Shown piece after piece: positions 1-64,000 of a stretch of 64,000 nt of DNA. How positions within the stretch are numbered: the stretch's first letter is position 1; each line of letters begins with the position of its first letter. The notes below the pieces were generated by a model that was given only the letters and a program-made list of their open reading frames with translations, did not search any database and was not told where the DNA came from. Source of the DNA: Amphiscolops sp. MND2022 (Eukaryota); the NCBI GenBank assembly GCA_964187785.1, contig OZ076409.1, forward strand, positions 73,286,001-73,350,000, given 5' to 3'. Both the position numbers and the translations under genes were made by a program.

Positions 1-958
1 CACCCCCCGTTACCCCTTGGGACCGGAAATGACCGTTATGTGGGTAAAATTGCAATATATGTACTTTTTAAAGGACTTTTAGATGCGGAAGGAGTGGTAA
101 TAGGTGCTTGGACACTATATGATGATAGGGAGGACGTGAGGCGAGCATTCGGAAATAACCGTTATGTTGACCCTGAAGTCCCCCTGGTACCGGAAGTGAC
201 CCGTAATGGTCAAATTTTGTGTTTAAAGGGTACAAATGTTTGGTGTTTTTTGGATAACAGTACCTATTAGGTGTTTCGACGGTCTGCAGTCGTGAACATA
301 GTCATGAAACCTTGTGGGGGGTAACGGTATATAGCACCTTAAGTGCAAACCGTTGGAGACAGGATAAGTTTTTTGGTTTTAAAATGTCTTTCGGCCTACT
401 TTTGTTGACTATTATGGACTATTTTTGAAAAAAAAAGTTTTTCCATATAGTTTCAGAGACTCCGAAACCTCAACCAACATAACCGTTACCTTATGATAGC
501 CTTTCAAGTTGGCCTGGTGTCAACTTGGAAGGGCTATCCTTCAAAAATCATTAATCAAGTGTGTTTTTGAGTATGTTTGTTTTACTTTAGAATCAATTAG
601 AGCTTCAAGAAAAGTTTGCCAACGATAAAAACTATGTCGTGATGATTCCGTTATTAGAATAATAGTTAACAAAATATTGATAAAGTTGATTTTTTACATT
701 TCAAATGTGTCCTAAATGCCAGAAAAACTCTTTACCAAACAAATGGTATTGATTGGATTGTATATAACAGCTAATAAAAGTTCAAATTGAATATTACGTT
801 TCATTATGGAAGCTGAAACGTCAAATTATAGTTTAATTAACGTCAACGCCACATACTTTACATCAACGCCCACCGTCTGTGGGCATGCCGAGGCATGCCC
901 TTCGACGACGTATACCAAATTCCTCCAACACAACACCCTCGAGCGCGGTAGCAGCTAG
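1..958 (+). mobile_element. Partial non-autonomous unit X (right part; CCGGAA-rich body, type-1 palindrome)
   Basis: Ends in the conserved right end and CTAG. GATAGCC...GGCTATC palindrome at 495-538. Body shares motifs with unit G (ggacXggaaatgaccgttatg). Confidence 0.75.
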
Positions 959-962
959 GTGG
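841..962 (+). other. Conserved right-end signal (example copy): CAACGCC/CGACG iterons, 20-bp palindrome, TTCGACGACGT, core CTAGGTGG
   Basis: The same motif order precedes 24 of 25 junctions. Palindrome GGGCATGCC-GA-GGCATGCCC at 881-900. Confidence 0.9.
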
Positions 963-1014
963 GCGGGGGTAATTCCCCTTCAAAAAATTCGGCCGGCGGG
1001 TTGGGTCCTGCCGG
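959..1014 (+). other. Conserved left-end double hairpin (example copy)
   Basis: GGGG-TAATT-CCCC at 966-978 and CCGGCGGG-TTGGGT-CCTGCCGG at 993-1014. Structurally equivalent stems occur in other families. Confidence 0.85.
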
Positions 1015-2498
1015 ACGTCAAATAGTGTGAAACATCCAGTAGGAAACGGCGACATAAATCAGCGATTTTAAAATTTAACCGTTAGAATTCGGACTTGGAG
1101 TGCATGCGGCCCCAAAATGCCCATACGAATCGAAGTTCCTGCTGACGTTAAGCGATAAAAACACTTTATAAAAAGTTATGGCCCATTTTACGTTCACTTA
1201 GAGAGGTAAAATGAGGAAAATTTTAACAAAGTTGCTGATAACTCAAAATACATTAGTTTTTGGACTTTGACTGTGAAACAAGCTTGGAACCTTCATTTCG
1301 TGGCTGTGGCATTGCACTGAACACAAAAGATGTGAAATTTTCACATTTTTTGAAAATTCGACATTTTTTGATTTTTTTTTCACTACTATCAGTACACTAT
1401 ATGTCAAAAACACCTCTGAAAAAATTTTTATTTGCTCAAATTTAGAAACCTCGGTATCCATGGTTTCCGTCAGTACCTACTCGCTGCAAAACGCTCAACA
1501 GTTTGCATCCAATGTGAAAATAAAATTTTTTTGGAGGTCTTAGGTGTTTCACAAGGATTTCTCAACTTAGTATCAATTTACAAATTGGTCATTTTGAACA
1601 CATTATTTCCATCGAAGCTTGTCGGCTATAGCCTTAATGTTCTAGAACGGTCTCACTGGCAACGTAGGAACCATTTATAGTAATAGAAAGTTTTAAAAAA
1701 ATTTTTTCACCCGGTCTTCAGTCATTTTTCAGTCATTCGGAACTTAACTTAGAAAAATTTCGACCAAAATACCCATTTTTTGTCAGGTCGAAAAATCAAA
1801 TTCAACTTTTTAAGCAAAATTATTAACTCTGACGTAACCCATGGGGCCCATGATACTCAAAACAACGATTGACACTGGTATCAGTGGCTCCAATAACATT
1901 TGAGTTGCGATAAGACGTTACTTTGAGCAATACGTCTCAATTGAGGTAAAGATCTCGCAAGCCAGCGATCACTGTGAAATGTGATTTCATCAAAAATTTA
2001 CTCATTTTTGTCAATCACTATGTGCACAGAATGCGTAGGGTGCGTTTCAGCACTATAATGAGGTTTTTGAAGGTATCGAGTTGCTCAAGGGGTGGTATGA
2101 GACATTTTTGTCCCATATACTACTGTATTTTCCAAAATTTTTAGCCCAATATCTGGAAATACAAACTTGACAAAATACTTTCAACTACTTTATTCAAAGG
2201 TTACATTATAGATGAACACTGTGGTTGATCAGAAACTTTCATCTCTTTCGTTTTCCGAAATATTTCCCTTCGCATGTGTTACATTTGTAGCAGAAAAAAA
2301 AATCGAAACTGAAAAATACGCTTTTTTGCTAATATAGAAACGCAATGATTGTGTCTAAAAACTCTTTAAACACTTCTAACGCAACCTTACGCACCCAAAA
2401 TGATCAAAACTGCTATTCACAATGGTGACATGTGCTCTTTCAACGATCCTGACTGAACAATTTTCGCAAATTATTCAAGTACCTGTTAACTGAATCTC

Positions 2499-2546
2499 GT
2501 GATAGCCTTTTCAGTTGGCCTTGTGTCAACTTGGGAAGGCTATCAC
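2499..2546. other. Type-1 subterminal imperfect palindrome (example copy)
   Basis: GTGATAGCCTT..AGTTG..CAACT..AAGGCTATCAC; present in all A units, X and E. Confidence 0.85.
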
Positions 2547-2941
2547 ATCAAAAAATTTTCAACAAAATTTTTTTTGTTCATTGGAAATGACAGTCGATAT
2601 ATAATTTCGTGATTCTATACTACCGTTAGTACCTTCCATTAAGTCACCTGACGATTGCATTCAGTCTTTGATAAATACCTATGAACTCGAATTCATATTT
2701 ATTAATTTTGTGCTAAAAATAAACATCAAAATTATCCAAATTATTCAAAATTGAGTCTTTACCGTTTTTGTTTTTCTTTTTCTACTGTTATTAGGCCCAT
2801 CAACTTCCTACAGCCACGCTCTCTGTCATTAGTACAACGCCACATAGTGTTGCGACGTGCACAGTCTGTGGGCATGCCGAGGCATGCCCTTCGACGACGT
2901 ATGCCGAATACCGCGGGCCTACGCCCGCGCTCCCCGGCTAG

Positions 2942-4929
2942 GTGGGCGGGGGTAATTCCCCAACAAAAATTACGGCCGGCGGGTTGGGTCCTGCCGGACG
3001 TTCAAATAGCGCGAAGCATCTAGTAGAAAACAAGGAGTCCTGAAACAGCGATTTTAAAATTGAACCGTTAGAATTTGGTTTTAGATTGCATGCGGCCCTA
3101 AAATCCCCATACGAATGGAAGTTCCTGCTGGCGTTAAGCGATTGAAATAATATATAAAAAGTTATGGCCCATTTTTGGGTCACCGAGAAGGTCAAAATGA
3201 AGAAAATTTTAACTAAGTTGCTGATAACTCAAAATGTGTTAATTTTTGGACTTTGACTGTGAAACAAGCTTGGAACCTTCATTTCGTGGCTGTGGCATTG
3301 CACTGAACACAAAAGATGTAAAGTTTTCTCATTTTTTGAAAATTCGACATTTTTGAATTTTTTTTCACTACTATCAGTACACTATATGTCAAAAACACCT
3401 CTGAAAAATTTTTTTATTTGCTTAAATTTAGAAACCTCGGTATCCATGGTTTCCGTCAGTACCTACTCGCTGCCAAACACTCAACAGTTTGCATCCAATG
3501 TGAAAATAAAATTTTTTTCGAGGTCTTAGGTGTTTCACAAGGATTTCTCAACTTAGTATCAATTTACAAATTGGTCATTTTGAACACATTATTTCCATCG
3601 AAGCGTGTTATATACCGCCCTAATGCTCACGAACGGGCCCACTGGCAACGTTGGAACCATTTATAGTAATAAAAAGTTTTAAAAAAATTTTTTCACCCCG
3701 TCTTCAGTCATTTTACACACTTTCGGAACTTAACTTAGAAAAATTTCAACCAAAAACCCATTTTTTGTCAAGTCGAAAATTCAAATTCAGCTTTTTAAGC
3801 AAAATAAATAAATCTGACATAACCAGTGGGGCCCATGAAACTCAAAACCACGATTGAGACTGGTATCAATGGCTCCAATAACATATGAGTCGCGATAAGA
3901 CGCTATTTTGAGCAAAACATCTCAATTGAGGTAAAGATCTCGCAAGCCAGCGATCACTGTGAAATGTGATTTCATCAAAAATTTACTCTTTTTTGTCAAT
4001 CACTATGTGCACAGAATGCGTAGGGTGCGTTTCAGCACTATAATGAGGTTTTTGAAGGCATCGAGTTGCTCAAGGGGTGGTATGAGACATTTTTGTCCCA
4101 TATACTACTGTAGTTTCCAAAATTTTTACCCCAATATCTGGAAATACAAACTTGACAAAATACTTTCAACTACTTTATTCAAAGGTTACAATATAGATGA
4201 ACACTGTGGTTGATAAGAAACTTTCATCTCTTTCGTTTTCGGAAATATTTCCGTTCGCATGTGTTACATTCATAGCAGAAAAAAAATCGAAACTGAAAAA
4301 TACGCTATTTTGCTGATATAGAATCGCAATGATTGTGCCTAAAAACTCTTTAAACACTTCTAACGCAACCTTACGCACCCAAAATGATCGAAAATGCTAT
4401 TCACAATGGTGACATGTGCTCTTTCTACGATCCTGGCTGGACAAGGTTTGCATATTTTTCAAGTACCTGTCAGCTAAATCTTGTGATAGCCTTTTCAGTT
4501 GGCCTTGTGTCAACTTGGGAAGGCTATCACATCAAAAAACCATCAACAAAAATACTTTTTGTTTATTAGATCTTACAGTCGATACTTTTTTTCGTGATTT
4601 TATACTACCGTTAGTATATTTCATCAGGTCACCTTACGATTGCATTCAGTCTTTGATAAAAACCTATGAACTCAAAGTCACATTTATATATTTTTTTGCC
4701 AGAAAATAACATCAAAAATATCTAAAATATATAAAGTAGAGTCTTTAACATTTTTACGTTTCAAGTTTTTGCCGTTATTAGGCCAATCAACGTCCTAGAG
4801 CCACATCCTGCCACATACTGTACAACGCCACATAGTGTTGCGACGTGCACAGTCTGTGGGCATGCCGAGGCATGCCCTTCGACGACGTATGCCGAATACC
4901 GCGGGCCTACGCCCGCGCTCCCCGGCTAG
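2942..4929 (+). mobile_element. Family A unit (1988 bp)
   Basis: Bounded by cores; near-identical to 44689-46676. Confidence 0.8.
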
Positions 4930-6207
4930 GTGGTCGTTAGCATGGGATTTTCTTTATGAGCGTAGTCCACTTTTTTTAGGCCGGGGTAGGGTCCCGGGCC
5001 GTTACCAATTTCTTACGGAGGAAAAATGTGAAAATCTGCGAGTTTAAAAAATTGGCCCGTACGATTTGGCTGAAAATTGGCATACAGCATCGTCTTGGTA
5101 AACAAATGACTTTGTCCTAGTGACATTTTGCCCAGAAAATTCAAAAAGTTGGTCAAATTGAAAATTTTTTGACCGTCTAAGGCTAAAATTTGACTTTTTC
5201 GCTTTTTTTTGGTCAATTTCCTCAGAACTGGTTGATTTTGGTGAAGTAAGTCATAAGAGGTTATAAGGTCTGCAAATAGCCATCAATTGGCTTGCATAAT
5301 CAGATTTTGTCAAAAGTGTTTAGTTTTTTCAAAATTTCACACTTTTTTTCATTTCAGTGTTTTTTGATACAATTTATTGAATTTTTACTAAGTTCCACTA
5401 AATATTTTTAAAATGTTTTTAAAAAACCTTTTTTTGCACGTTTTTGATGTTTTTTGCTCTCCCATATAGGTTTTCGCATACGGGGAACCTGAATCTGACA
5501 ACGAAATAATTTTATTCCGCAGTTCAACTTACGCCATTTTTAATAGTGAAAAATCACTCATTTTCAATCTAACGAGTGAAAATATCAGAATTTAAAAACC
5601 TAAAGTTGAGTTTAAGGCGACTTACAGGTAGAAACAAATGCTCAGAAACAAACGGATTTCTTGTATTAGCTAAAGAAAGCCTTTAAAATTCTTTTTACTT
5701 TCTTTAAATCAAAATTCGACACTTTTCATGAAATTTGTCAGTGGAAAAAATTTATCATTTTTTAAATTAAAAACTTGCTTTGTTGGTCATTTCCGTTAGT
5801 CATTAGTAGCTGTGTAATGCTCCAAAGCCTTTCAAGTTCTTTTGACCCTATTTGAAAATTTTTGATACTGCATAATCAATCCGAGAGAACGAAACAGTTG
5901 TGTACATTCCATCTCCCTCTTGGGGGAGATGAGAATGTACTTCCTAAAGTCCAGGTACTACAGATCATATTTGGTTTTATGCGACGCCCTCTATGCTAGT
6001 GCATATAAATACAAGTTGTTTGGCTGGATTTTGCTTCTGACTTGACGTATACTGTACGTTTGGTACTGACAATACCCATCATTTACATAACAAACGTCAA
6101 CGCCACATACCCTTACCAACGCCCATAGTCCGTAGGCATGCCGAGGCATGCCTTTCGACGACGCGCGCCAAACACAAGCGCGCCCGCACTTTTGCGGTAG
6201 CGGCTAG
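4930..6207 (+). mobile_element. Singleton unit C (1278 bp)
   Basis: Distinct body but shared left box (ccgtacgatttggctgaaaatt), type-2 palindrome at 5902-5940 and conserved right end. Confidence 0.75.
5902..5940. other. Type-2 subterminal imperfect palindrome (example copy)
   Basis: GTACATTC-CATCTCCC...GGGAGATG-A-GAATGTAC; also in D and all B units. Confidence 0.85.
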
Positions 6208-8194
6208 GTGGGCGGGGGTAATTCCCCAACAAAAAAATCGGCCGGCGGGTCGGGTCCTGCCGGACGTCAAATAGTGTGAAACATCCAGTAGGAAACGGCG
6301 ACATAAATCAGCGATTTTAAAATTTAACCGTTAGAATTCGGACTTGGAGTGCATGCGGCCCCAAAATGCCCATACGAATCGAAGTTCCTGCTGACGTTAA
6401 GCGATAAAAACATTTTATAAAAAGTTATGGCCCATTTTACGTTCACCTATAAGGGTAAAATGAGGAAAATTTTTACAAAGTCGCTGATAACTCAAAATAC
6501 ATTAATTTTTGGACTTTGACTGTGAAACAAGCTTAGAACCTTCATTTCGTGGCTGTGGCATTGCACTGAACACAAAAGATGTAAAGTTTTTACATTTTTT
6601 GAAAATTCGACATTTTTGATTTTTTTTTCACTACTATCAGTACACTATATGTCAAAAACACCTCTGAAAAAAATTATTATTTGCTTAAAATTGGAAACCT
6701 TGGTATCCATGGTTTCTGTCGGAACCTACTCGCTGCCAAACACCCAACAGTTTGCATCCAATGTGAAATTAAAATTTTTTTCGAGGTCTTAGGTGTTTCA
6801 CAAGGATTTCTCAACTTAGTTTCAATTTACAAATTGGTCATATTGAACACAATATTTTCATCGAAGCTTGTCAGATACCGCCCTAATGCTCACTAATGGG
6901 CCTACTCGCAACGTTGGAACCGTTTATAGTAATAGAAAGTTTTAAAAAAATATTTTCACCCGGTCTTCAGTCATTTTTCAGTCATTCGGAACTTAACTTA
7001 GAAAATTTTCGACCAAAATACCCATTTTTTGTCAGGTCGAAAAATCAAATTCAGATTTTTAAGCAAAATTATTTACTCTGACGTAACTAGTGGGCCCCAT
7101 GATACTCAAAAACACGATTGGGACCGGTACCAATGGCTCCAATTTCATATGAGCCGCGATAAGACGTTATTTTGAGCAACACGTCTCAATAGAGGTAAAC
7201 ATCTCGCAAGCCTGGGGTCACAGTGAAAAGTAATTTCATCAAGATTTTACTCATTTTTGTCAATCACTATGTGCACAGAGTGCGTAGGGTGCGTTTCAGC
7301 ACTTTATTGAGGTTTTTGAAGGCATCGGTCTGCTCAAGGGGTGGTATGAGACATTTTTTTCCTGTATACTACTGTATTTTCCAAAACTTTTAGCCAATTA
7401 TCTGGAAAAACTAACTTGACAAAATACTTTCAATTACTTTATTCAAAGGTTACAATATAGATGAACCCTGTGGTTGATCAGAAACTCTCAACTATTTTGT
7501 TTTCCGGAAAAAATCACTTCGCATCTGTTACATTTGTAGCATGAAAAAAAGCAGAATCTAAAAAATACGCAATTTTGTTAAGATAGAATCGCGTTGATTG
7601 TGCCTAAAAAGTTAATAAACACGTCTGACGCCACCATACAGACCCAAAATGATTGAACATGTCAATCAGAATGCTGACATGTTTTCTATCTACGATCATG
7701 GTTGGACAATTTTTGCATTATTTTCAAGTACCTGTTAACTGAATCTTGTGATAGCCTTTTAAGTTGGCCTTGTGTCAACTTTGGAAGGCTATCACATCAA
7801 AAAATTATCAACAAAAATGCTTTTTGTTTATACAATGTTGTTTTCGATAAACATTTTTGCGATTCTAAGCTACCGTTAGTACCTTCCATGAGGTCAGCTA
7901 ACGATAGCATGCAGTCTCTGATAAAAAATTATGAACTCAATTACATTTTTCTAAAATTTTTCTTAGAGAAAAGTACAAATAAAAAAAAACAATATAAAAT
8001 TCTAATCTCAAACAACTATAAATTGTTTGTTTTTCACCGTAATTAGTTTACGACCCATCACCCTATGTCACGGCACCGTCATTAGTACAACGCCACATAG
8101 TGTTGCGACGTGCACAGTCTGTGGGCATACCGAGGCATGCCCTTCGACGACGTATGCCGAATACCGCGGGCATACGCCCGCGCTCCCCGGCTAG
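6208..8194 (+). mobile_element. Family A unit, divergent subtype (1987 bp)
   Basis: Bounded by cores; colinear with other A units but with a more diverged right half. Confidence 0.8.
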
Positions 8195-10177: not shown

Positions 10178-12361
10178 GTGGAGGTTATTTTATAATAATT
10201 AAAGTGTTTTTTTCCGGAGTTTGTGGCTTTGGAAAAAACAAAAGGCGAGAAATTGGGCACTCCGGGCTGAACCGTATACACTCAAAATTCGCCCAATATT
10301 TATACGATCTCGAAACCCAGCCGTACGATTTGGCTGAAAATTTGCATGCGTCTAAAAAATCAGATTCTAAGAACTATTTCCTGCTGACATTTTTTTGAAA
10401 TTTTTGTGTACGTTTCCCCCCCGCCCCCTAAAGGGGTCAATTTTCCCCAATTTTGCACTTATGAGTCAAATTCTCAAAACTGGTGGATCTGAGCGTATTC
10501 CCGGCGGGGACAACTTTTAACGAGCGCTCCTCAGTAGACCTTTTTGACTTTTTACTTTGGTGGTACGTTCACCCCCCGAGGAGGAAATGGCGTTTTTGTG
10601 ACTTCCGGTCGAGGCTTTTTTCACCCAAAAAATAGAATTAAGCCAATTTTGAGCAGGAAGGAGTGGATTTAAAGTGCCTGTACCCTGCTAAAAATTTGTT
10701 GGGCTTGTAGCGATATATCTCATACCAAGTCTGGTTTTCACCCCCAAACCCCCCTTGGGACCAAAATTCACCCAAACTTTTTTTACCTCTGTTTGTAGTT
10801 TTTTGCAAAATGTCGTCATTTCCATGGGTAAGGAGTTGAATTAGGGGCTCCTAATAGGGTACCAATGTTCAAGTACACTTGCAGTGCAACTGAGTGACCC
10901 TTTTGGGGCCTCTCCTGTGTTCGGCAAGGACCGGAAGTGAGGTAAACCCCCCTTTTTTGACGTTTGTTGACCTTGAGACTCGCGCTTAGATGACGTTTAT
11001 GTCGCGCAAATCCTACAAACCAGTATTAGGATGACATGCTAGCCAACTAGAGAGCACTAAGGGAAACTATACTATACCGGAAGTAACCCCCCGTGACCGG
11101 AAGTTGTCATTTTTGACCGGAAATGGTCCAAAACATAGCGTAAAAGCAGTTTTCATTGCTTTTAAAGTCAACTCATTACTTTTTTCAGTCTGCGCGAGCT
11201 TGTCTTCAGATTCGTTTTTGTTGTCCGTGCACACTACAACAAATATACATCTGTAGAAATTTTGCTATAATATCGTCGGAGAGAGAAATAACGGGTTTTC
11301 GGAATTTTTTTTCAAAAATGTTTGTCTATATCTATCATTTTTACCCAACGTTATTCAACAGTAGAACCACAGGGGTTAGTATCTGCCAAAATATATGCCT
11401 AACAAAACCACTCGTCCCATTGGTTGCAGTTTGAGCGTTCTAGCTTTGCTTGGTCACAAGTTGAGGGACTTCAAAAAGTTTCAAATTTTTTTGGAAATTT
11501 TTTTTTAAACGTCACGTCTCCCAAAGTTAAGAATTTTCCACACAACTAGGATTGCAAGAGAATGCACATGGTAAGACCTATAAATGGAGAGAAAAATTCC
11601 GTTCAGAACGTCTCTTTATCGTTACGTGACGTTAAAAGATGTTGCTTTGAATGTGAATTTGATAATGCGTCGAGAAGTAAAAGTGTGAATGGATCCTATG
11701 TCTCGACAAATACTCATCGCAATACATACGATGAACCCCAATTACCCTCACTTTCAGTTGGCTAGTACATCAGCGTCTTCCAAGGACCGTTTACCTATTT
11801 GAAAATTGTCAAAATCATTATTAATATCAGTTAGCAAGAAATATTTCAGTACATTGTCATCTCTCCCCATCGGGTGAGATGAGAATGTTCTTGCTAAAAG
11901 TCAAGTACTACGGCCCATTTTTGTTTTATTGCGACGTTTTCTGTGCCTTAGCACAAGGATACTTTTATGTCATCTCACTTTTGTAATACAATCTGACTTG
12001 TTGTTATAAATTTCTCGTCATTACTTTACCTAAACTTACTACCATGCATCTTTAACGTCAAAGCCAAATTCATTTAGACGCCCACCATTCCGTAGGTATG
12101 CCGAGGTATGCCTTTCGAAGACGTATGGCAAAACACAAACGGGCAAATGAAAAGGGCTGAAATTCAGAAACAGTCACAAACAATTTTGACTATTTGACCG
12201 ATGGTAGGTTTTTATATGGAACTTACACATCACTGACATTTCAAAACATTCCAGCTGACGCCCACTTACAAACATCAACGCCCACGGTCCGTGGGCATGC
12301 CGAGGCATGCCCTTCGACGACGTATGGCAAATACCTTTTACGACGTCCCAACTTTCCCTAG
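10178..12361 (+). mobile_element. Singleton unit D (2184 bp) with duplicated right end
   Basis: CCGGAAGT-rich body homologous to E; type-2 palindrome at ~11848-11891; degenerate end at ~12054-12145 and intact end at ~12255-12361. Confidence 0.75.
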
Positions 12362-13750
12362 GTGGTTGGGGCGGTCCCCAGAACGCACAAGGAGGCGCGG
12401 GGAGGGTCCTGCGCCGACGTAGAATAATTTCATATAATACTAGTATCCTACATGGGTGTTTTAGAGGCGATTTTGGAATCTAACCGTAGGATTTGGATAA
12501 TTTTTTGCATGCGGCCATAACTAAAAATTCTAAGAACTTTTTCTTACTGTCATTTTCCCCGCAAATTGTTTTTTGTTGACTTATGGCCGAAAAACCGGAA
12601 ATAACGTCCTTTTTAGACGTTATATCCGAAGTGTCGTCATAACTTTTTTCCAGGGCATGCTAGCGTTCTCGTTCACTTTTACACTTAGTTGCAGCATCTC
12701 AAAATACAACTGGTGGAAAATTTTGGTTGCATTCGGATCACCCCCCACCGAGATAGAAGGGTTCCCCCCTCCAGTTTTACCCCCCAAATTTGCAAAATAG
12801 CCAATTTTGAGCATGAAGCCGAGGATTTAGCGTACCCATACCCTCCTGATGTTTTGTTGTACGTATTGGGGTCAATCTGACGACATGTGTGGTTTTCACC
12901 CCCAACCCCCCCTTGGACCGGAAATGACACTTTTTTGTGTTTTTTGGCAGAATTTAGCCTTTTTCATTATTAGGCAGTCGTTTTAGGGACTCCTAGCAGA
13001 ATATCGAAATTGAAATACAACCTGATCACAACCCAGTGACAACATAGTGGCCACTTGGAGGTATCATCATGACCGGAAGTGGGGTCAACCCCCCTTTTTG
13101 TGACCGCTTTTTGACCTTGTGCACCAAAATGCCAACATCTTGAGGCCTAATGAGGCATTCAAATCTGTACCAAGATAAAATGTTAGAAAACCCAAGTCCC
13201 GGAAGATCTTTAGCATATACCGGAAGTTACCCCCCACGACCGGAAGTTACCCAATGTGACCGGAAATGGTCCAAAAATTAATGTAAAGTTGAATTTTTCA
13301 CTATTTCAAGACCACTTAATTGAAACTTTTCAATCTATAAACTAGCGTACTGGCTTGTTTTGCTGAATTTATGGAAATTGATGAGCTCTATCGCCCCCGA
13401 TAGCCTTCGAAGTTGACCTTGCGTCAACTTTGTAGGCTATCGATAAAGAAAAATGAACAACAAAGTACATTGTTGCTCTCGTTTTTTTCCCGTTGTTTTT
13501 CCTCAAACATTCTTGAGACATATACATGGCCGTTAGTTGAAATCAATATTTAGCCCATGTTATAGCTGGAGCAGCGAAGCGTTACACAGACTAGTGTGGT
13601 TTTGAAATCACACTATTTAAATTAACAACTGACCGTCGTAGTCAACTCCACACATTCATACCAACGCCCACCGTCTGTGGGCATGCCGAGGCATGCCCTT
13701 CGACGACGTATGACGAATCCACTCCAACGACACCCGCAGTCCTCAGCTAG
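12362..13750 (+). mobile_element. Singleton unit E (1389 bp)
   Basis: Co-varied left hairpins; body homologous to D; type-1 palindrome at 13398-13442; conserved right end. Confidence 0.75.
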
Positions 13751-16700
13751 GTGGGCGGGGGTAATTCCCCAACTAAAAAATCGGCCGGCGGGTTGGGTCC
13801 TGCCGGCCGTCCAAAATCAAAAATATACTAGTAGAAAACGGCCGGTCAAACGAGCTATTTTTTTATTTAACCGTTAGAATTTGGGTTTAGATTGCATGCG
13901 GCCATGAAATGGCCATACGAATGGAAGTTCCTGCTGACGTTTTGCGATTGAAACACTTTATAAAAAGTTATGGCCAATTTGTCATTCACCTAGAAGGGCA
14001 AAATGAGGAAAATTTTAACAAAGTCGCTAATAACTCAAAATGTGTTATTTTTTGGACTTTGACTGTGAAACAAGCTTGGAACCTTCATTTCGTGGCTGTG
14101 GCATTGCACTGAACGCAAAAGATGTAAAGTTTTTACATTTTTTGAAAATTTGACATTTTTGAAATTTTTTTCACTACTATCAGTACCATATATGTCAAAA
14201 ACACCTCAGAAAAAAATTTTATTTGCTTTAACTTGGAAACCTTGGTATCCATGGTTTCTGTCGGAACCTACTCGCAACCAAACAACCAACAGTTTGCATC
14301 CAATGTGAAAATAAAAAATTTTTCTGGGTCATAAGCGTTTCACAAGGATTTCTCAACTTAGTATTTATTTACAAAATGGTCATTTTGAACACAATATTTT
14401 CATCGAGGCTTGTCGGCTATAGCCTTAATGTTCTAGAACGGTCCCACTGGCAACGTAGGAACCATTTATAGTAATAGAAAGTTTAAAAAATATATTTTCA
14501 CCCTGTCTTCAGTCATTTTTCAGTCATTCGGAACTTAACTTAGAAAAATTTCGACCAAAATACCCATTTTTTGACAGATCGAAAATTCAAATTCAACTTT
14601 TTAAGCAAAATTAGTAACTCTGACGTAACCAGTGGGGCTCATGATACTCAAAAACACGATTGGGACTGGTACCAATGGCTCCAATATCATATGAGCCGCG
14701 ATAAGACGTTATTTTGAGCAATACGTCTCAATTGAGGGAAACATCTCGCAAGCCTGGGATCACAGTTAAAAGTGATTTCGTCAAAAATTTACTCTTTTTC
14801 GTCAATCACTATGTACACAGAGTGCGTAGGGTGAGTTTCAGCACTATAATGCGGTTTTTGAAGGAATCGGTCTGCTCAAGGGGTGGTATGAGACATTTTT
14901 TTTGCATGTAGTACTATATTTCTCAAAACTTTTAGCCCAATATCTCGAAAAGCTCACTTCGCAAATTACTTTCAGTTACTCTATTCGAAGCTTAGAATAT
15001 ATATGAACACTGTGGTTGATCAGAAACTCTTGACTATTTTGTTTTTGGAAAAAAACTGCCTTGCATGTGTTACATTAGTGGCAGGAAAAATACCAGTAGC
15101 TCCAAAAATCACAATTTTGGACGGACAGACCTGCAATGATGCAAAGCAAAAACGTTTCAACAACTTCTGGCGCCACTTTTTTTACCCAAGAGGTTCGAAA
15201 TTACTATTAACAATGCTGACATTCGCTATAAATAAGATCGAGGTCAATTTACTAACACTTAGGTTATACATTTATATCTGAGAAACCATTCTTTGTCAGG
15301 TCGCTATTTTAAATTTAGTTTGGGAAGCAATACTTTTCACTCTGAAGCAAACCGTTGGGCCCAAATTACTCAAAAACTACAAAAAGACTGTCACCATATG
15401 CCCTAATAGCATATGAGATTCGACCGTATGTTTTTAACACAAAAACTCTCATCCGAAGTAAACATGTTGAAAGCCTTGAATCACCGTGAGAAATGATTTC
15501 ATCAAAAAATATTCCTTTTTCGTCAATCTTTATCTACACAGAACACGTTGTGTCATTTTCAGCCGTGAAATGAGCTTCTACCGTAATATGGGTTGCTCAA
15601 GGTGTTGTATAAGACAAAAACTTCCTCTTTTCTACTATCTTCTTCAAATATTTCAACCCTTTGTCACAAGAAGTTAATATTCAAAATCTCTTTGAAATGT
15701 TTCTTTAGGTTGGGGTGAAGTGTTAGAACAATAATTATGATCGAAGAATGATAGTATTGGTGTTTGGACCATGTCCGGATGAACAAATTGCAAAATCATG
15801 AAAAATTTCTTACCATTTTTGGTCAGTTTGTCAGTACTAAAAATGTTAGCTGAAAAAGAATTTTTTTGATGGCACCATTGGATTCCTCTCAAAAAGTTAG
15901 CTATATGAACTGTGTAATAACCCCGTATCTTTTCAATTTAAATAATTTTAAAAAGCAAACTTTTTTGACTAAAATCCTAAAAATCATACCATTTCCTAAA
16001 AAATTTCAAATGCCCCCCATTTGACGTATAAGAATAGCACAGAAAACTATCACATACCGATCGACTCTACTTCCATTGTAGATTACCAGAATTTTGTTTA
16101 GAACAATTTTTGACGGATGCAAAAAAAATTTAAACCCTCCAAAAAAGAGCAAAAATTACACGAAAAAATTGACCTTAAAATTTTAAAATGTCGAAAAATC
16201 ATCAAAACCACAGCTTCTTGGGGTTCTATCAACTCCACGTGGTCCACAGAGTTTGTTAAAACAAGTTTTACCCGTATTTGAGCAATATGTGAAAAAGCCG
16301 ACTTTTTTGGGAATGAAAAACATACCATTTCCTAAAAAATTTCAAACGCACCCCATTTGACGTATAAGAATAGCACAGAAAACTATCACATACCGATCGA
16401 CTCTACTTCCATTGTAGGTTACCAGAATCTTGTTTAGAACAATTGTTGACGGATGCAAAAAAAAAATTAAACCCTCCAAAAATGGGCCAAAATTACACGA
16501 AAAAATTGACCTTAAATTTTTAAAATGTCAAAAAATCATCAAAACCACAGCTTCTTGGGGTTCTATCAACTCCACGTGGTCCACAGAGTATGCTAAAACA
16601 GGTTTTACATGTTTCTGAGCTATATGTGAAAAAACCGACATTTTGGGGAAGAAAAACATACCATTTCTTAAAAAATTTCAAATGCACGCCATTTGCCGTA

Positions 16701-18513
16701 TGAGAATAGCACAGAAAACTATCACATACCGATCAACTCTACTTCTATTGTAGATTATCAGATTTTTGTTTAGAACAAATTTTTATGGATATAAAAAATT
16801 TTTAAACCCTCCAAAAATGAGCCAAAATAACACGAAAAAATGGACCCTAAGTTTTTAAAATGTCAAAAAATTATCCAAACCACAGCTTCTTGGGGTTCTA
16901 TCAGCTCCACGTGGTCCACAGAGTATGCTAAAACAGGTTTTGCCCGTTTTTGAGCAGTATATGAAAAAGCCGACATTTTTGGGGAAGAAAAACATACCAT
17001 TTCCTAAATAATTTCAAATGCAGGCAATTTGCCGTATGAGAGTAGCACAGAAAACTATCACACACCGATCAACTCTACTTCTTTTGTAGATTATCAGAAT
17101 TATGTTTAGAGTAAAGTTTTATGGATATGAAAAATTTTTATACCCTCCAAAAATGGGCCAAAATGACACGAAAAAATTGACCTCAAATTTTTAAAATGTC
17201 AAAAAATTATCCAAACCACAGCGTCTTGGCGTTCTATCAACTCCAAATGACCTTCAGAGTATACCAAACCACGTATTGCCAATCTTTTGAGCAATATTTA
17301 AAAACACCGACTATTTGGCAAGAACACCATAATATGTTCCATATAAGAAGTGAATCATTCCACATATATACCCGGTCTAATATTTCCAAATTAGCGATAA
17401 CATTTATACATGATGGTTTTTGAAAGTGAGCTTCATAAGAGGTTGAGATGTAATAATACGTAAATGGACCCTAAGTTTCATTGAAATCTCAATGGAATAC
17501 GTCCAATCAACTTCAATCCTAACTATTATATAACAAAAAACACTTGAGTACATTCCATCTCCCCATCGGGGGAGATGAGAATGTACTTTTCAAAAGCCAA
17601 AAACTTCGAATTTTAAATCTTTTGTAACATTGTATGTAACTGTTGAAACGATGAACGAATGAAAATGCTTCTAGTACCTTCATCAATTTTTGCTTCAGCT
17701 CCTATTTCTGCAGAACAAAACCAAAAGACACACTTACAGCAGTTAAGTTCGATTGTATAACTCAGTGAGTAAAGGTATGACTGAGGAAGTTCACAAGTTG
17801 TTTCAAAAGTTTCCGGCCTTCCAAAATCATGAAACGTCCACACAACCAAGATAGCAAGTGAAAGAATGCTGAATGCACCTTATTAGATGAGATAAATAAT
17901 GTGTGGAACTTGCCATTATCTCAAGATGACGTTGATTTATGATCTTTTAAGGATAGTTCGATATGTGACCACAATAGTGGAAAACTTATTACTATTTGAA
18001 GAACACCGTGGAAAGCGTTCAGAAAGGACAGTATATTTGTTTCGAGCATGCATGCGTGTGTTCCTTTGGTGACGTTAGCTTAGTGTACATGACGGAGGTA
18101 TTCGAGAGATTATGATAGAGTTTACTCACAAGTCTTTGTTTTTTTAAACTTTCTATGCCGTTGAGTACATTCGTAAGGTACATCCATCCCCTTCTCTGGG
18201 AATGTACGTTTGCCAAATGACTGTCATCCAAAATTCGTAATCCGGACGAGTTTAACTACATAAACATGTGATGAGCGTTTTCAATTCACAACCGAATAAC
18301 ATTTTTTTTCTCGAAAATGATGATGGTTTTGATTTTGATGTCTTCTACTTTTATCATCATGCAAACGACCTTACCATGTCTCTCTTCTGTCGTCATTTGT
18401 ACAACGCCACATAGCGTTCCGACGCCCACCGTCTGTGGGCATGCCGAGGCATGCCCTTCGACGACGTATGCCAAATGAGCCATACCCGCACTCTGGAGTG
18501 CGGTAGCGGCTAG
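13751..18513 (+). mobile_element. Family B unit, subtype B1 (4763 bp)
   Basis: First ~1.3 kb homologous to family A, then an internal duplication, a 4x336-bp array and a type-2 palindrome at 17547-17587. Confidence 0.8.
15985..17330 (+). repeat. Internal tandem repeat, 4 x ~336 bp
   Basis: cataccatttc.taaa recurs at 15985, 16321, 16657, 16993. Confidence 0.9.
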
Positions 18514-27229: not shown

Positions 27230-30200
27230 GTGGGGGGGGATATATCTCCACTTTTTTTGCGACCGCGGGTAGGGTCCTGTCGGGAGCTTCTATTTACCAA
27301 GCTTACGGCGCTATATACTAGAGAAAATTTTTCCGGCACCGAACTTTTTTTTGAACCATAGGATTTGTACCATTTTTTGCATGCGGCCCTAATTTGGGCA
27401 TACAAGACGAAGTTCCTGCTGACGTTAAGCGATGGTTTCATTGTGTAACGAGATATAGCCACTTTTTGGTGCGAATTTTGAGGTATTTTTGAGAAAAATT
27501 TTACAAACAGCTCGAATGCAAAAAATTGAAAAACTTGTGACAATCGACCTATCACTGGTTTAAACCTTCGATTCTTTGCCCTAGCAATGCACTAGACCCA
27601 AAAGATCTAAAACTTTTACATTTTCCAAAAATTTGACCAAATTGACTCGGGTTTCACTACTATATGTAACCAATGTGACAAAAACACCTCAGAAAAAAAT
27701 TTTTATTTGCTTAAATTTAGAAACCTTGGTATCCATGGTTTCTGTCGGAACCTACTCGCAGCCAAACACTCAACAGTTTGCATCCAATGTGAATTTAAAT
27801 TTTTTTTCGAGGTCATAGGTGTTTCACAAGGATTTCACAACTTAGTTTCATATTACAAATTGGTCATTTTCAACATCATATTTCCATCGAGGCATGTCGG
27901 ATAGAGTCTTATTGCTTACGAACGGTCCTACTGGCAACGTGTTAACCATTTATAGAAATACAAAGTTATAAAAAAATTTTTTCACCCGTTCTTCCATCAT
28001 TTTTCAGACATTCGGAACTTATCTTTCCGAGAAAAATTTCGTCTCAAAAACCCATTTTTTGTCAGGTCGAAAACTTAAATTCAGCTTTTTAAGCACAATT
28101 ATTAACTCTGACGTAACCAGTGGGGCCCATGATACTCAAAACAACGATTGGGGTTGGTACCATTGGCTCAAATAACATATGAGTCGCGATAAGACGTTAT
28201 TTTTAGCCATACGTCTCAATTGAGGTAAACATCTCGCAAGCCAGGGATCTCTGTGAAATGTGATTTCATCAAAAAGTTACCCATTTTCGCCAATTACTAT
28301 GTGCACAGAGTGCGTAGGGTGAGTTTCAGCACTATAATGAGGTTTTTGAAGGATTCGGGTTGCTCAAAGGGTGGTATGAGACATTTTTTTCCCATATACT
28401 ACTGTATTTTCCAAAAACTTTAGCCCATTATCTGGAAAAACTAACTTGACAAAATACTTTCAGTTACTCTATTCGAAGCTTAGAATATAGATGAACACTG
28501 TGGTTGATCAGAAACTATTAACTATTTTGTTTTTAGAAAAAAACTGCCTTGCATGTGTTACATTAGTGGCAGGAAAAATACCAGTAGCTCCAAAAATCAA
28601 AAATTTGGACGGACAGACTTCCAATGATGCAAAACAAAAACGTTTCAACAACTTCTGACGCCACATTTTTTACCCAAGAGGTTCGAAAACACCATTAACA
28701 ATGCTGACATTCGCAATAAATAAGATCGAGGTCTATTTACTAACACTTAGGTTTTAAATATTTTTCTCGGAAACCCATTATTGTCAGGTCGCAAATTCAA
28801 ATTTGGTTTTGGAAGCAATACTTTTCACTCTGAAGCAAACCGTTGGGCCCAAAATACTCAACAACAACAAAAAGACTATCACCATATGCTCTAATAACAT
28901 ATGAGATGCGACTGTATGTTTTTAACACAATAACTCTCATTCTGAAGTAAACATGTTGAAAGCCTTGAATCACCGTGAGAAGTGATTTCATCAAAAAATA
29001 TTTCTTTTTCGTCAATCACTAAATACACAGAACCCGTTGTGTTAGTTTCAGTCGTGAAATGAGGTTCTACCGTAATATCGGTTGCTCAATGTGTTGTATA
29101 AGGCAAAAACTTCCTCTTTTCTACTAACTTCTTCAAATATTTCAACCCTTTGTCACACGAAGTTAATATTCAAAATCTCTTTGAAATGTTTCTTAAGGTT
29201 GTGGTGAATTGTTAGAACAATTACTATGATCGAAGAATGCTAGTATTGGTGTTTGGACCATGTCCGGATGAACAAATCGCAAAATCAAGAAAAAATTGTT
29301 TCCTTTTTTGGTTATTTTGGCAGTAATAAAAATGTTAGCTGATAAATAATTTTTTCGAAGGCACCATTGGATTCCGCTCAAAAAGTTGATTATAAGACAT
29401 GTGTAATAACCCCGTATCTTTTCAATTTAAATAAATTTAAAAAGCAAACTTTTTTGACGAAAATCCTAAAAATCATACCATTTCCTAAAAAATTTCAAAT
29501 GCACTCCATTTGACGTATAAGAATAGCACAGAAAACTATCATATACCGATCAACTCTACTCCCATTGTAGACTATTAGAATTTTGTTTTGATTGAATTTT
29601 GAAGAATATTAAAAAATTTTGAACCCTCCAAAAATGGACCAAAATTACACGAAAAAATTGACCTTAAAATTTTAAAATGTCAAAAAATCATCAAAACCAC
29701 AGCTTCTTGGGGTTCTATCAACTCCACGTGGTCCACAGAGTACGCTAAAACAGGTTTTACCTGTTTTTGAGCAATATGTGAAAAAGCCGACATTTTTGGG
29801 AAAGAAAAACATACCATTTCCTAAAATATTTCAAATGCACGCCATTTGCCGTATGAAAATAGCACAGAAAACTATCACATACCGATCAACTCTACTTTCA
29901 TTGTAGATGATTAGAAATTAGTTTAAATGAAAATTAGACGGATAATAAAAAAATATAAATCCTCCAAAAGTGGGCAAAAATTACACGAAAAAATTGTCCT
30001 TAAAATATTAAAATGTCGAATAATCATCAAAACCACAGCTTCTTGGGGTTCTATCAACTCCACATGGTCCACAGAGTACGCTAAAACAGGTTTTACCCGT
30101 TTTTGAGCAATATGTGGAAAAGCCGACATTTTTGGGAAAGAAAAACATAACATTTCCTAAAAAAATTCACATGCACGCCATTTGGCGTATAAGAATAGCA

Positions 30201-32002
30201 CAGAAAACTATCATATACCGATCAACTCTACTCCTATTGTAGATTATTAGAACTTTGTTTTGAATGAATTTTGATGGATAATAAAAAATTTTGAACCCTC
30301 CGAAAATGGGCTAAAATTACACGAAAAAATTGACCCTAAAATTTTAAAATGTCTAAAAATCATCAAAACCACAGCTTCTTGAGGTTCTATCAACTCCACA
30401 TGGCCCACAGAGTATGCCAAACCAGGTTTTGCGCGTTTTTGAGCAAAATTTAGGAAAGCCGATTTTTTTGAGGAAGAAAAACATATCATTTCCTAAAAAA
30501 CTTCAAATGCACGCCATTTGGCGTATAACAATAGCACAGAAAACTATCACATACCAATCAACTCTACTCTTTTTGTAGATTACCAGAAGTTTGCTTGGAA
30601 TAACTTTTGATGAATATTTATAAATTTTAAACCCTCCTAATATGGGCCAAAATCACACGGAAAAATTGACCCTAAGTATTAAAATGTCAGATATTCATCA
30701 AAACCCCAGCTTCTTGGGGTTCTATCATTTCCATATGACTTTCAGAGTATACCAAACAAGTTATTAACATTGGGCGATAATTAAAAAGACCAATTTTATT
30801 CTGAAGAAAACCATAATATGTTCAATATAAGAAGTGAATCATTCCACATATATACCCTGTCTAATATTCTAAATTAGCAAAAAAATATATACTTGATGTT
30901 TTTTGAATGTGAGCTTCATAAAAGGTTGAGATGTGATAATACGTAAATGGATTCCAAGTTTCATCGAAAAGTCAATGGAATACGTCCAATCAACTTCAAT
31001 CTTAACAATTCGATAACAAAAAACACTTAAGTACATTCCATCTCCCTATCGGGGAGATGAGAATGTACTTTTCAAAAACTAAAAACTTAGATCTTTCTAT
31101 CTTTTGTAACACTTACTGTAACAGCTGAAATGATGAAAGAATAATTATTCTTCTAATAACTTCAAGATTTTTTGCTTCACCTTTTATTTCTGCAGAACAA
31201 AACCATGAGACATACATATTTTTCGCAGTTAAGTTCGACTGTATTACCCAGTGAACAAAGGTATGACAGGAAGATTACAAGTAGTCTCAAAACTTTCCCG
31301 CCTTCCAAAATCATGAAACGTCTACACAACCAAGATAGTAAAGGAATGAATGTGGAATGCATCATTTTAGTTAAAATAAATAACGTGTAGAACTTACCTT
31401 TATCTGAAGATGACGTTGATTTATGATCTTTAGAGGATAGTTCAATTTTTGACCATAATAGTGCGAAACTAATTATTATATGAATAATGGCGTGGAAAGC
31501 GTTCAGAAATTGCAGTATTTTCGATTCGAGCATGTATGCGTGGGTTCCTTTGGTGGCATTAGCTTAGTGTACATGATGGAAGTTTTCGATCTATTATGAT
31601 AAAATTTACTCACAAGTCTTTGTTTTTCCTATTTTTTTATGCCATTAAGTACATTCATTCTATCCCCTTCTCTGGGAATGTACGTTTGCCAAATGACTGT
31701 CATCCAAATTTTGCATTCGCGAAGAGTTTAAATACATAAACACGTCTTTAGCGTTTCCAAATCACAACCGATTAACATTTTTTAAAATTTTTTTATGAAA
31801 ATTGATAATTTGTTTTGATTTTGGTATCTTCTACTTTTATCATCCATCATAACAAGCACCTTACCATGTCTCTCGCTTGTCTTCATTTTACAACGCCACA
31901 TAGCGTTCCGACTCCCACCGTCTGTGGGCATGCCGAGGCATGCCCTTCGACGACGTATGCCAACTACTTTTTATATCTACACCCGATTGCGGTAGCGGCT
32001 AG
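27230..32002 (+). mobile_element. Family B unit, subtype B3 with divergent left arm (4773 bp)
   Basis: First ~450 bp strongly diverged from other A/B units; remainder B-like. Confidence 0.8.
29474..30815 (+). repeat. Internal tandem repeat, 4 x ~336 bp
   Basis: Unit starts near 29474, 29810, 30146, 30482. Confidence 0.9.
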
Positions 32003-46676: not shown

Positions 46677-47741
46677 GTGGTCGGGTGTTTTACCTTTACA
46701 GAGTAGTGCGAGGCCGGGTAGGGTCCCGTGACGAGCTTGAAGAATAGCCTGCTAAAAATATACATGTTGGGGGGGGGGGGGGGTCTACGGAGACGATCTC
46801 GAAAATGAACCGTTAGAATTTATTCAAACTTTGCATGCGGACATAGAATCAAAATGTAAGAACTTTTTCCTACTGGCACTTTTCGCTCCATACCCTGTGA
46901 CGGAAGTTATGAGCAAATGTATGTCGAAATCACCCATTTTTCGCATCTTTTCAATCGCTGCTCCTCAGCCATTGGAGCCAATAGGCCGAAACTTTTTGTG
47001 TGAGGTACAAATGAAGTGGGCTACAAGATGGCCAAAAATTTTTGGCCAGGTCCTAATACATCGGGAAATATGATAGAAAATATACACCAAAAAAGGTGAT
47101 TTTTTGACACTTTTTATCATGACTTCCGAAGTGCCCAATGGAATAGGTAGTGCCTATGGATAAAAATGAATGGTTTTATGTTTAATCGAAAGAGGAAAAA
47201 ATTTTGGTTTTTTTGGCCGAAAAAAAAGTTCTACAAAAGTTCTACAAAAATTCGAAAAATTTAGAATTTTTCCAAAAAAAAGGTTTTTTCGTCTTTTTTG
47301 ATGTTTTTTCACATTTTGAGGTCAAAAATGAGGTACCCGAGCACTTACGCTGACTTTTTAGGGGAATTTGACACATTTAATTTTTATTTTTGGTTAATGA
47401 TTACACTTTTAAAGTTTTAATCCCAAATTACTGCAATCTTTTCTCAGTTGTTGGAATTCTATGTTTTTTGTTAAATGACTTGTAGAAAGATCGCCGATGT
47501 TCCGGAAGAACGCGAAGCGTTTCGGAGGAAGATTGGCGACAAACGATAAAAGTCTGTGCAACTTATGTGCTTCCAATGAGGTGCTTGGTAGAATTATCAA
47601 GATGAAAAAATAACTTTTTTGAGTTAGTTTGTTGTGAAATGAAAACGATTAAAGTTTACAATTTTAAGTTACACCAATTTCAGTTTCAATCAAGTATTGT
47701 CTGAATAGGCCTTACTGGTAGTTGGTACCTGCCTCCACTGG
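46677..47741 (+). mobile_element. Singleton unit F (1065 bp), lacking the right end
   Basis: Has the left hairpin (CGGG-TAGGGT-CCCG) and left box, but no palindrome or right-end motif; stops at CTGG|GTGG. Confidence 0.7.
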
Positions 47742-63239: not shown

Positions 63240-64000
63240 GTGGCGGGGGGCTGTCCCCAATAGAATATAGTGAGGTAGGGTAGGGTTCCCTACCGAACAT
63301 TCAGTACTGAAAGACTCTTGTAGTATGAAAATTTTCCGATGTTTTGAGACCGATTTCGGATTCCACCCGTCAGAAGTTTATGATTTTTTGGCCCCCACCC
63401 AGATTTTGGGCACTGATCGCCCCCCACCAGGTTCCATACCCGTGGTTTCGTTGTGACGGGTACACGAGCGACCGTTAGGGGTCAATCAGGGGGTAAAATT
63501 TATAAAAGTGTGAATAACTTTTCCCCCCGTCGTTTTAGCAGGTCCGGTCACTAGTAAAGGTTTGTTGGGCATCATGCAGTGGGTACGGGGGGCCAAACAA
63601 AAATTTTCTATCATGCACCGTTACGGACTTGGCCCCCCGCCCAAACCGCTATTTTACCGGAAATTGCACTTTTTGAACGGGAAGGAGTCGTCTGAGCGCG
63701 GAGTCGTTTGGTAATGTTTTGTAGAGCATCTGAAGACGTGGTGGGGGACATGTAGTTTGCCGACCCCAGTTTACCCCTCGGACGGGAAATGACCGTTATG
63801 TTAGTTTTAAAATTGCCCCCCGTCAACTTTAACCGCTATTTCTGGTGTGAAGGAGTCGGAACAGCGTGTCGGGTGCTATATATCAAAAGTAGCTTTAAAC
63901 AAGGACCTATCAGAAACATGTGGTTTGGGACCCTTTGAACGGACCCGTTAGCCGGAAATAGGGTGACCGCCTCCTTTTTTTGGTGTTAAAACCGTAAAAC
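63240..64000 (+). mobile_element. Partial unit G (left part)
   Basis: Starts at the core. Hairpins GGGG-CTGT-CCCC and GGTAGGG-TAGGGTT-CCCTACC (63274-63294). Body motifs shared with unit X. Confidence 0.7.

Follow-up and report, generated by a model that had tools for sequence, protein, structure and literature searches.

What is the double hairpin at positions 959 to 1,014 of this stretch of DNA, and which kind of enzyme would read it? An earlier note had described it as a left end conserved by structure and had favoured its recognition, as folded single-stranded DNA or RNA, by an HUH/rolling-circle or attC-like mechanism. The window, by which the whole stretch of 64 kb is meant, consists of one head-to-tail array of 26 units, all on the plus strand and two of them cut by the window edges (Table 1). 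The units follow one another in the order X A A C A A D E B1 A B2 A B3 A A A B2 A A F B1 A A2 B1 A2 G, with no spacer, TSD or TIR between them. The G+C content of the window is 37%, and the longest open reading frame with a start codon encodes 222 aa. None of 55 window frames, comprising 54 of the 81 stop-to-stop frames of at least 60 aa in positions 1-18,513 and the 222-aa reading frame, matched Pfam at the cut-off. No Rfam family matched at gathering scores in the 64 kb or at an E value of at most 1 in positions 1-18,600, and a tRNA search of the window found none. Public sequencing runs compared with positions 8100-13900 contained only short, mostly low-depth pieces (three runs, shares 0.06-0.10).

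The bodies of units X, C, D, E, F and G are largely unrelated, save for a 500-bp stretch of D and E (66%) and short motifs at the ends, and the first 1.47 kb of unit B is ~85% identical to A. An older internal duplication of 330 bp is also visible in the B units (unit positions ~815-1146 and 1536-1866, ~68%). In A2 an A body is combined with a left end and a tail of the B2 type, the first 500-600 bp of the third B1 copy are A2-like, and mosaic units were noted at 54494-56485, 56486-61247 and 61248-63239. A G run is present in unit F near 46770-46784.

Table 1 Features of the array, in window positions (a slash in a sequence marks the joint between two units)
Feature	Position	Strand	Remarks
Unit X	1..958	+	cut by window start; has inner hairpin, right block and CTAG end
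Junction core CTAG/GTGG, unit X/unit A	955..962	+	crossover inside core
Unit A	959..2941	+	~1,985 bp; A-type units are 14/26, 84-99% identical
Left-end stem 1, unit A	966..978	+	arms 966-969/975-978; weak alone
Left-end stem 2, unit A	993..1014	+	arms 993-1000/1007-1014, loop TTGGGT 1001-1006
Left subterminal block	1079..1145	+	sequence conserved among families, weakest in G; from alignment
Inner hairpin, class 1	2501..2544	+	44 nt; found in A, X and E
Right-end conserved block	2836..2903	+	ACGCC-type repeats ~18-20 nt apart, then CGAG-loop hairpin 2870-2889
Terminal hairpin	2912..2941	+	ends 12 nt before end, then CTAG-3'
Unit C	4930..6207	+	left end 15 nt longer; stem 2 at 4979-5000 with G.G mismatch; class 2 inner hairpin
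Unit D	10178..12361	+	left-end sequence unrelated; stem 2 at 10208-10238, offset as in A
Decayed second right-end block in D	12040..12130	+	~200 bp before the end in use
Unit E	12362..13750	+	stem 2 at 12394-12415
Unit B	13751..18513	+	~4,760 bp; 6/26 units
Central 336-bp tandem repeat of B	15980-17316	+	3.8-4 copies; also in the other five B units
Unit B3	27230..32002	+	B body, own left end; bulged stem 2 at 27258-27288
Unit F	46677..47741	+	normal left end; no inner hairpin or right block; weak hairpin, then CTGG end
Unit G	63240..64000	+	cut by window end; stem 2 at 63274-63294, 7-nt loop

The hairpins proposed earlier in units A, E, G and D read as described at the positions given in Table 1; in unit A the third pair from the loop is G.T. 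The claim that the structure of stem 2 is kept while its sequence changes was borne out by arm-swap, shuffle and alignment tests. With the three conserved apical pairs excluded and one bulge allowed, 35 of 40 distal pairs were formed in eight distinct ends (A, B3, C, D, E, F, G and L002, a relative outside the window; B was omitted as a near copy of A), a level reached by 20 of 40,320 arm swaps between families. Without L002, 30 of 35 pairs were formed and 8 of 5,040 swaps reached this number; without bulges the values were 27/35 and 12/5,040. Shuffling of each 3' arm reached the observed pairing in 4 of 20,000 cases. The same helix was recovered by RNAalifold from a sequence-only MAFFT alignment of eight ends (D out, B in), in which 82.8% of stem 2 cells were paired compared with 68.3% after shuffling (0/500 shuffles reached this value, in a test whose caveat is that related sequences may beat its shuffles). 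Slid registers of this alignment were paired at 39-58%. Double changes were present at four of the eight stem 2 pairs, a count reached by 115/500 shuffles. Over 70 nt the left ends of distinct families are 36-66% identical, the exceptions being A/B (84%) and E/L002 (74%).

Unit D, as had been claimed, folds in spite of its unrelated sequence. Its stem has 12 bp and the loop lies at nt 43, the offset also seen in A and F. This stem was equalled by 6 of 20,000 shuffles, and among 12,381 interior positions none had a stem of at least 14 and 0.02% had one of at least 10. The loop NNGGGT, described as conserved, is present in seven of the eight distinct ends (G carries an extra T, giving 7 nt) but not in D, where it reads TTTGTGG. 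By eye, stem 2 of F can be extended beyond 4 bp if a T is bulged out at the position of the bulge in B3, and five of the eight ends (E, G, B3, F and L002) have GA opposite GA where stem 2 begins at its foot. Tandem G.A pairs are stable in folded DNA and RNA. A reading of the loop as a telomeric repeat was rejected, there being no telomeric arrays among the tandem repeats of the window.

Stem 1 had also been said to co-vary, but the three examples given contain the same G-C run with different loops, which is not covariation. Genuine changes in stem 1 were found in D (all A-T), F and B3. Shuffled sequences reached stem 1 in 37-291 of 1,000 cases per family (Fisher p = 0.03 over the seven window families, with a search range chosen after the data had been seen), and 23% of interior windows hold at least five stem-1-like pairs. 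Whole-end folding energy was lower than that of shuffles (p < 0.05) in 13 of 16 distinct ends, but in only four of the seven independent families, B3, C and F being the others. The plus strand folded lower than the minus strand in eight of nine ends, with one tie. The left stems contain 18 G.T and 2 A.C pairs, where composition alone predicts 72% G.T (p = 0.053), several of the pairs are inherited and F and L002 were scored in another register by script; the corresponding counts are 12 and 0 in the inner hairpins and 9 and 10 around the right block. The proposal that G.T pairs are tolerated and that a folded single strand is recognised thus gains from the G.T excess and the lower folding of the plus strand, but is weakened by the p value and by the inherited pairs, and the plus-strand bias is only suggestive. 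Judged from the sequences, the left end is likely to be recognised as a single strand. Because the shape of stem 2 is kept as its sequence changes, it is likely to be read as single-stranded DNA by an enzyme that is probably Helitron-like.

These results also bear on an explanation that involves no single-stranded step, in which the hairpins would be palindromic protein-binding sites or relics and the array would be the product of local target preference and homologous exchange. Such exchange is evident in the A and B mosaics, stem 1 is weak, three of the seven families fail to beat shuffles in total energy, and double insertion at preferred sites gives tandems in Drosophila (PMC5932611, in part). 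Against it stand the covariation of stem 2 and the fold of D at the same offset, as well as the bulges and G.T pairs, which would leave the minus strand mismatched. Moreover, a crossover core of 7-8 bases is too short for homologous recombination, and the units have no target duplication between them, unlike the tandems in the parts of PMC5932611 compared. We regard this explanation as distinctly unlikely.

The junctions between units read CTRG/GTGG (R, A or G) in 25 of 25 cases, and each of the 25 CTRGGTG sites on the plus strand of the window coincides with one of them. The 3' end is CTAG in 24/25 and CTGG in 1/25, and L002 has CGAG. The 8-base core is identical at 24/25 junctions; counting F and L002, only G/GTG is contiguous and invariant. 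Tails travel with the upstream body and left ends with the downstream body, and the A tail was found on 12 of 12 typical A units irrespective of the unit that follows. Because the tail always goes with the upstream body, the crossover is placed in the 7-8-base core and not in the shared 60-bp block. Stem 1 starts 5-12 nt past the crossover and the right block ends 39-49 nt ahead of it; the loop lies 41-58 nt from the junction and the right block 45-55 nt from the end, and these variable distances fit flexible single-strand recognition. Inverted arms flanking the junctions scored 5.9/11 in 16 distinct junctions, compared with 5.7 +/- 1.0 when shuffled.

A core of this kind would also suit non-autonomous Crypton-like elements, for which a tyrosine recombinase would excise circles and integrate them at the 7-8-bp core, perhaps reading folded single strands in the manner of integron integrases. 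The core identical at 24/25 junctions, the fixed orientation and the lack of TIR and TSD agree with this, and the 7-8-base core could be read as terminal direct repeats of the Crypton type. In the parts of the sources compared, Cryptons have 4-6-bp terminal direct repeats and no TIR, are proposed to pass through a circular form and include non-autonomous families in animals (PMC3212892), and some CryptonV families are target-specific (PMC8869645). The arm scores, however, reveal no 11-13-bp inverted arms round a 6-8-bp spacer at the crossover, an arrangement to be expected from PMC3212892, the conserved blocks lie at variable distances from it, and F and L002 reduce the invariant core to G/GTG. 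Structured ends are absent from the Crypton descriptions compared (PMC3212892, in part), and on an integron-like reading of such a recombinase a hairpin would span the crossover as in attC, which was not found. A Crypton-like origin is accordingly considered unlikely.

Two further enzymes, a serine recombinase like that of IS607 and a Y1 peel-and-paste enzyme like that of IS200/IS605, could act at the central GG or 3' of CTAG. The junction centre is G/G in 26/26 cases including L002, the right end has ACGCC-type repeats ~18-20 nt apart and hairpins are present at both ends, all of which would suit such enzymes. The left and right hairpins are, however, unrelated and variably spaced from the crossover, and a target of two or four bases would not restrict insertion to junctions, at which only 24 of the 83 CTAG sites in the window lie. 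Pairing of the loop GGGT with RCCC in the tail, possible in 8/9 tails, was rejected as being at chance level (14-85% of shuffles). We hold either enzyme to be very unlikely.

A block at nt 110-190, common to the left ends, is likely to be a protein-binding site. Pairing of GTGGGCG at the left with a subterminal CGCCCAC as an asymmetric repeat was discarded, since it spans 7 bp and was found in only three of nine units. The right block is present on every complete unit but F, giving 24 units and, with the second copy in D, 25 matches. For its CGAG-loop hairpin, RNAalifold gave a single G-C/A-U double change, carried by 3 of 11 rows. Past the block, a family-specific tail of 39-49 nt leads to CTAG, and a hairpin 10-12 nt before the 3' end is strong in 5 of 11 distinct tails and weak or absent in the other 6. 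Unit F was likely shortened at a cryptic site. In the decayed block of D both C-to-T changes keep the hairpin as G.T, and the region around 12040-12130 resembles the right part of C (72-77%).

Left ends were intact in 25/25 cases and the sole truncation affects a 3' end, which argues against reverse transcription. This observation concerns the possibility that the hairpins fold in the RNA of non-autonomous retroelements with a specific target, where they could form a 5' ribozyme or a leader that binds protein. The G.U and tandem G.A pairs are typical of RNA, and the two ends and the inner hairpin all fold on one strand. On the other hand, no left end is truncated where one right end is, the Rfam and tRNA searches gave no match, and neither a poly(A) tail nor a TSD was found at the junctions. 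Non-LTR and SINE-like retroelements are marked by 5' truncations, a 3' tail, a TSD and a known RNA head, none of which the window units show. An RNA origin of the hairpins therefore has little probability in our estimate.

An inner hairpin of ~44 nt, 270-930 bp from the right end, was found in all family representatives examined except F, and also in L002; one guess is that it may be a second-strand origin. Inner hairpins were noted at 2501-2544, ~5900-5941, 11850-11890 and 17548-17586, and at 567-605 of L002. They fall into two classes, one per unit, that are common to otherwise unrelated families, and B has a second, decayed one ~310 bp from the unit end.

Growth of the array was followed in nine near-identical pairs of units (98-100%). 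Identity ended 1-9 bases upstream of the junction in seven of the nine and within 4-7 bases downstream in five of the nine; for the remaining pairs, the adjoining units are A-type relatives too. The units downstream of two B2 copies that match at 100% diverge from nt 21, and two B1 copies (99.2%), one after E and the other after F, differ 2 bases ahead of the junction. Of two A copies that agree at 99.1%, one is flanked by A and D and the other by B1 and B2. Only one near-identical pair is adjacent (98.1%), indicating that concatemers of the same circle are not the main source of the array. The different neighbours and the sharp stops of identity point to site-specific insertion of single units at junctions, and the units were thus likely added one at a time. 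The A and B bodies are mosaics, indicating that homologous exchange acts on top of insertion.

Relatives were sought outside the window. The right-end motif alone, used as a query against metagenome contigs, gave three matches (L001, L002 and L003), of which L001 and L003 were dropped as GC-rich chance hairpins. L002 has a CGAG/GTGC junction followed by both left stems and a TAGGGT loop. At the left end it resembles E (67% over 211 bp), and it therefore serves as an out-of-sample check and not as a new lineage. A covariance model built from the left ends of A, B, B3, E, F and G (R1) gave held-out scores of 44.8 bits for L002 (E = 8e-12), 23.4 for C and 16 for D, the match in D spanning the junction and stem 1 only and so being no test of its stem 2; the best non-junction match scored 11.6. 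No true relative was found in the prokaryotic, viral and phage collections searched, which suggests a eukaryotic nuclear origin of the window. The sole match in a viral contig, L004, was rejected as a chance match that lies inside a long ORF without right block or left stems; BLAST found no match between L004 and the listed units, and R1 gave 10.2 bits on its bare core. Positions 1-3743 of L004 contain three long ORFs and by eye resemble an RNA-phage genome. A literature search whose scope lay outside Repbase, Dfam and subscription journals found no description of this element, and the three window motifs occurred in 0 papers.

We propose that the double hairpin, with which the non-coding repeat units begin at their 5' end, is a single-stranded-DNA signal for an HUH (Helitron-like, rolling-circle) transposase encoded elsewhere in what is probably a eukaryotic genome, a proposal for which we see about as much chance of being right as of being wrong. 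The enzyme would nick the plus strand at G/GTG and peel it off 5' to 3'. Transfer would stop at CTAG behind the right-end hairpins, and a circle would close with the joint CTAG/GTG. A chromosomal junction, with its right block and hairpin followed by the double hairpin, would mimic this joint and become a preferred target, so that junctions could take up circles one by one from any family with these ends; subsequent exchange among the similar A and B bodies would give the mosaic sequences. The CTRG 3' end, the hairpin in 5/11 tails, the variable 3' ends, the lack of TIR and TSD and a spacing that is flexible speak for an HUH enzyme rather than a tyrosine recombinase. Of the two mechanisms named in the earlier note, HUH/rolling-circle transposition therefore gains from the 3' end, its variability and the spacing, and the attC-like one finds no support, since no inverted arms flank the junction and no single hairpin spans the crossover. 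Against an HUH enzyme, the 5' end is GTG and not TC, there is no A/T target, the terminal hairpin is weak or absent in 6/11 tails and no enzyme was found among the 55 frames. The constant 8-base core at 24/25 junctions would equally suit the overlap of a tyrosine recombinase, and the end conserved in sequence is the right end. The intact left ends and variable right ends, for their part, parallel Helraiser, which by the parts of the source compared cannot do without its left end but tolerates bypass or replacement of its right end (PMC4778049).

The units were compared with known systems as described in parts of PMC10288648, PMC5148889, PMC13085455, PMC11417382, PMC4067079, PMC3212892, PMC8869645, PMC4778049, PMC9587614 and PMC5932611. 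They resemble HLE1 elements such as Helraiser in the CTRR-3' end (25/25), in the hairpin 10-12 nt before the 3' end of part of the tails (strong in 5/11), a geometry given for HLE1 (PMC5148889, PMC4778049, in part), in variable 3' ends and in having no TIR or TSD. Their junctions also resemble a circle joint of CTAG and the start of the element, Helraiser circles having exact CTAG/TC joints (PMC4778049, in part). In contrast to HLE1, a 5' TC is found in 0/25 units, all of which start GTGG, and there is no A/T target, 25/25 junctions in the array being G/G. The structured 5' end, the mixed arrays built at junctions, the extra right block and the inner hairpin set the window units further apart. 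The portions of the Helitron literature compared describe neither targeting of own junctions nor a 5' double hairpin in HLE1, and Helraiser inserts at AT.

Like HLE2/Helentron/HINE/DINE-1 elements, the units have hairpins at each end and no TSD, and some copies contain central tandem repeats. By the parts of the sources compared, HINEs carry central tandem repeats (PMC4067079) and the proto-Helentron has a 3' CTAG and a 5' stem-loop, as do the window units (PMC11417382, PMC4067079). The units differ in having no 11-18-bp subterminal inverted repeat (the longest is 5-7 bp in nine units), no T-rich target and a 5' end that is neither T nor TT. The telomere-targeted Helitrons of Paramecium, for which targeting by sequence has been proposed, are absolute in their orientation and have non-autonomous copies rich in satellites (PMC13085455, in part); they are flanked by telomeric repeats, whereas the window units abut without a spacer. 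Replitrons are HUH elements with a right-end hairpin, and Replitron-1 inserts in an oriented manner 3' of RG (PMC10288648, in part). AG or GG likewise precedes 25/25 left ends, as well as that of L002, but the units have no direct repeat at both termini (the longest is 2-4 bases and non-terminal, in nine units), no fuzzy ends and no TSD. By their termini, the units are not HLE1, HLE2/Helentron or Replitron, the 3' end being the most HLE1-like part. Integron cassette arrays share with the window the mixed array on one strand and the structure-conserved unit ends. An attC site is one bulged hairpin with the crossover at its foot; the window units are gene-less, no integrase is nearby and the crossover is not at the foot of a spanning hairpin. 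It is possible, if rather doubtful, that the units represent eukaryotic DNA transposons of a group not yet described, marked by GTG...CTAG termini and by ends folded as single strands, whose enzyme targets the junctions between the elements and builds integron-like mixed arrays.

The double hairpin is a real, structure-conserved left end of non-autonomous elements in a mixed array that is likely junction-targeted, and the enzyme is most likely of the HUH type. The tandem transposons compared in the literature, as far as the sources were covered, are concatemers of one element, share long repeats or arose from two insertions that left a duplicated target separating the copies. The window units, whose bodies of 1-4.8 kb are unrelated, have nothing in common but their end signals and meet directly, without intervening sequence, at a single exact site. 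Were an HUH enzyme responsible, the terminus rules of Helitrons (TC/CTRR, TT) would be widened, and tools built on these rules would miss such elements; the enzyme would also be a site-specific integrase that restores its own target with every insertion. For finding the enzyme in the source genome, the conserved ends offer a direct bait. If the self-targeting group is real, the array would be a natural self-regenerating landing pad for kilobase cargo.
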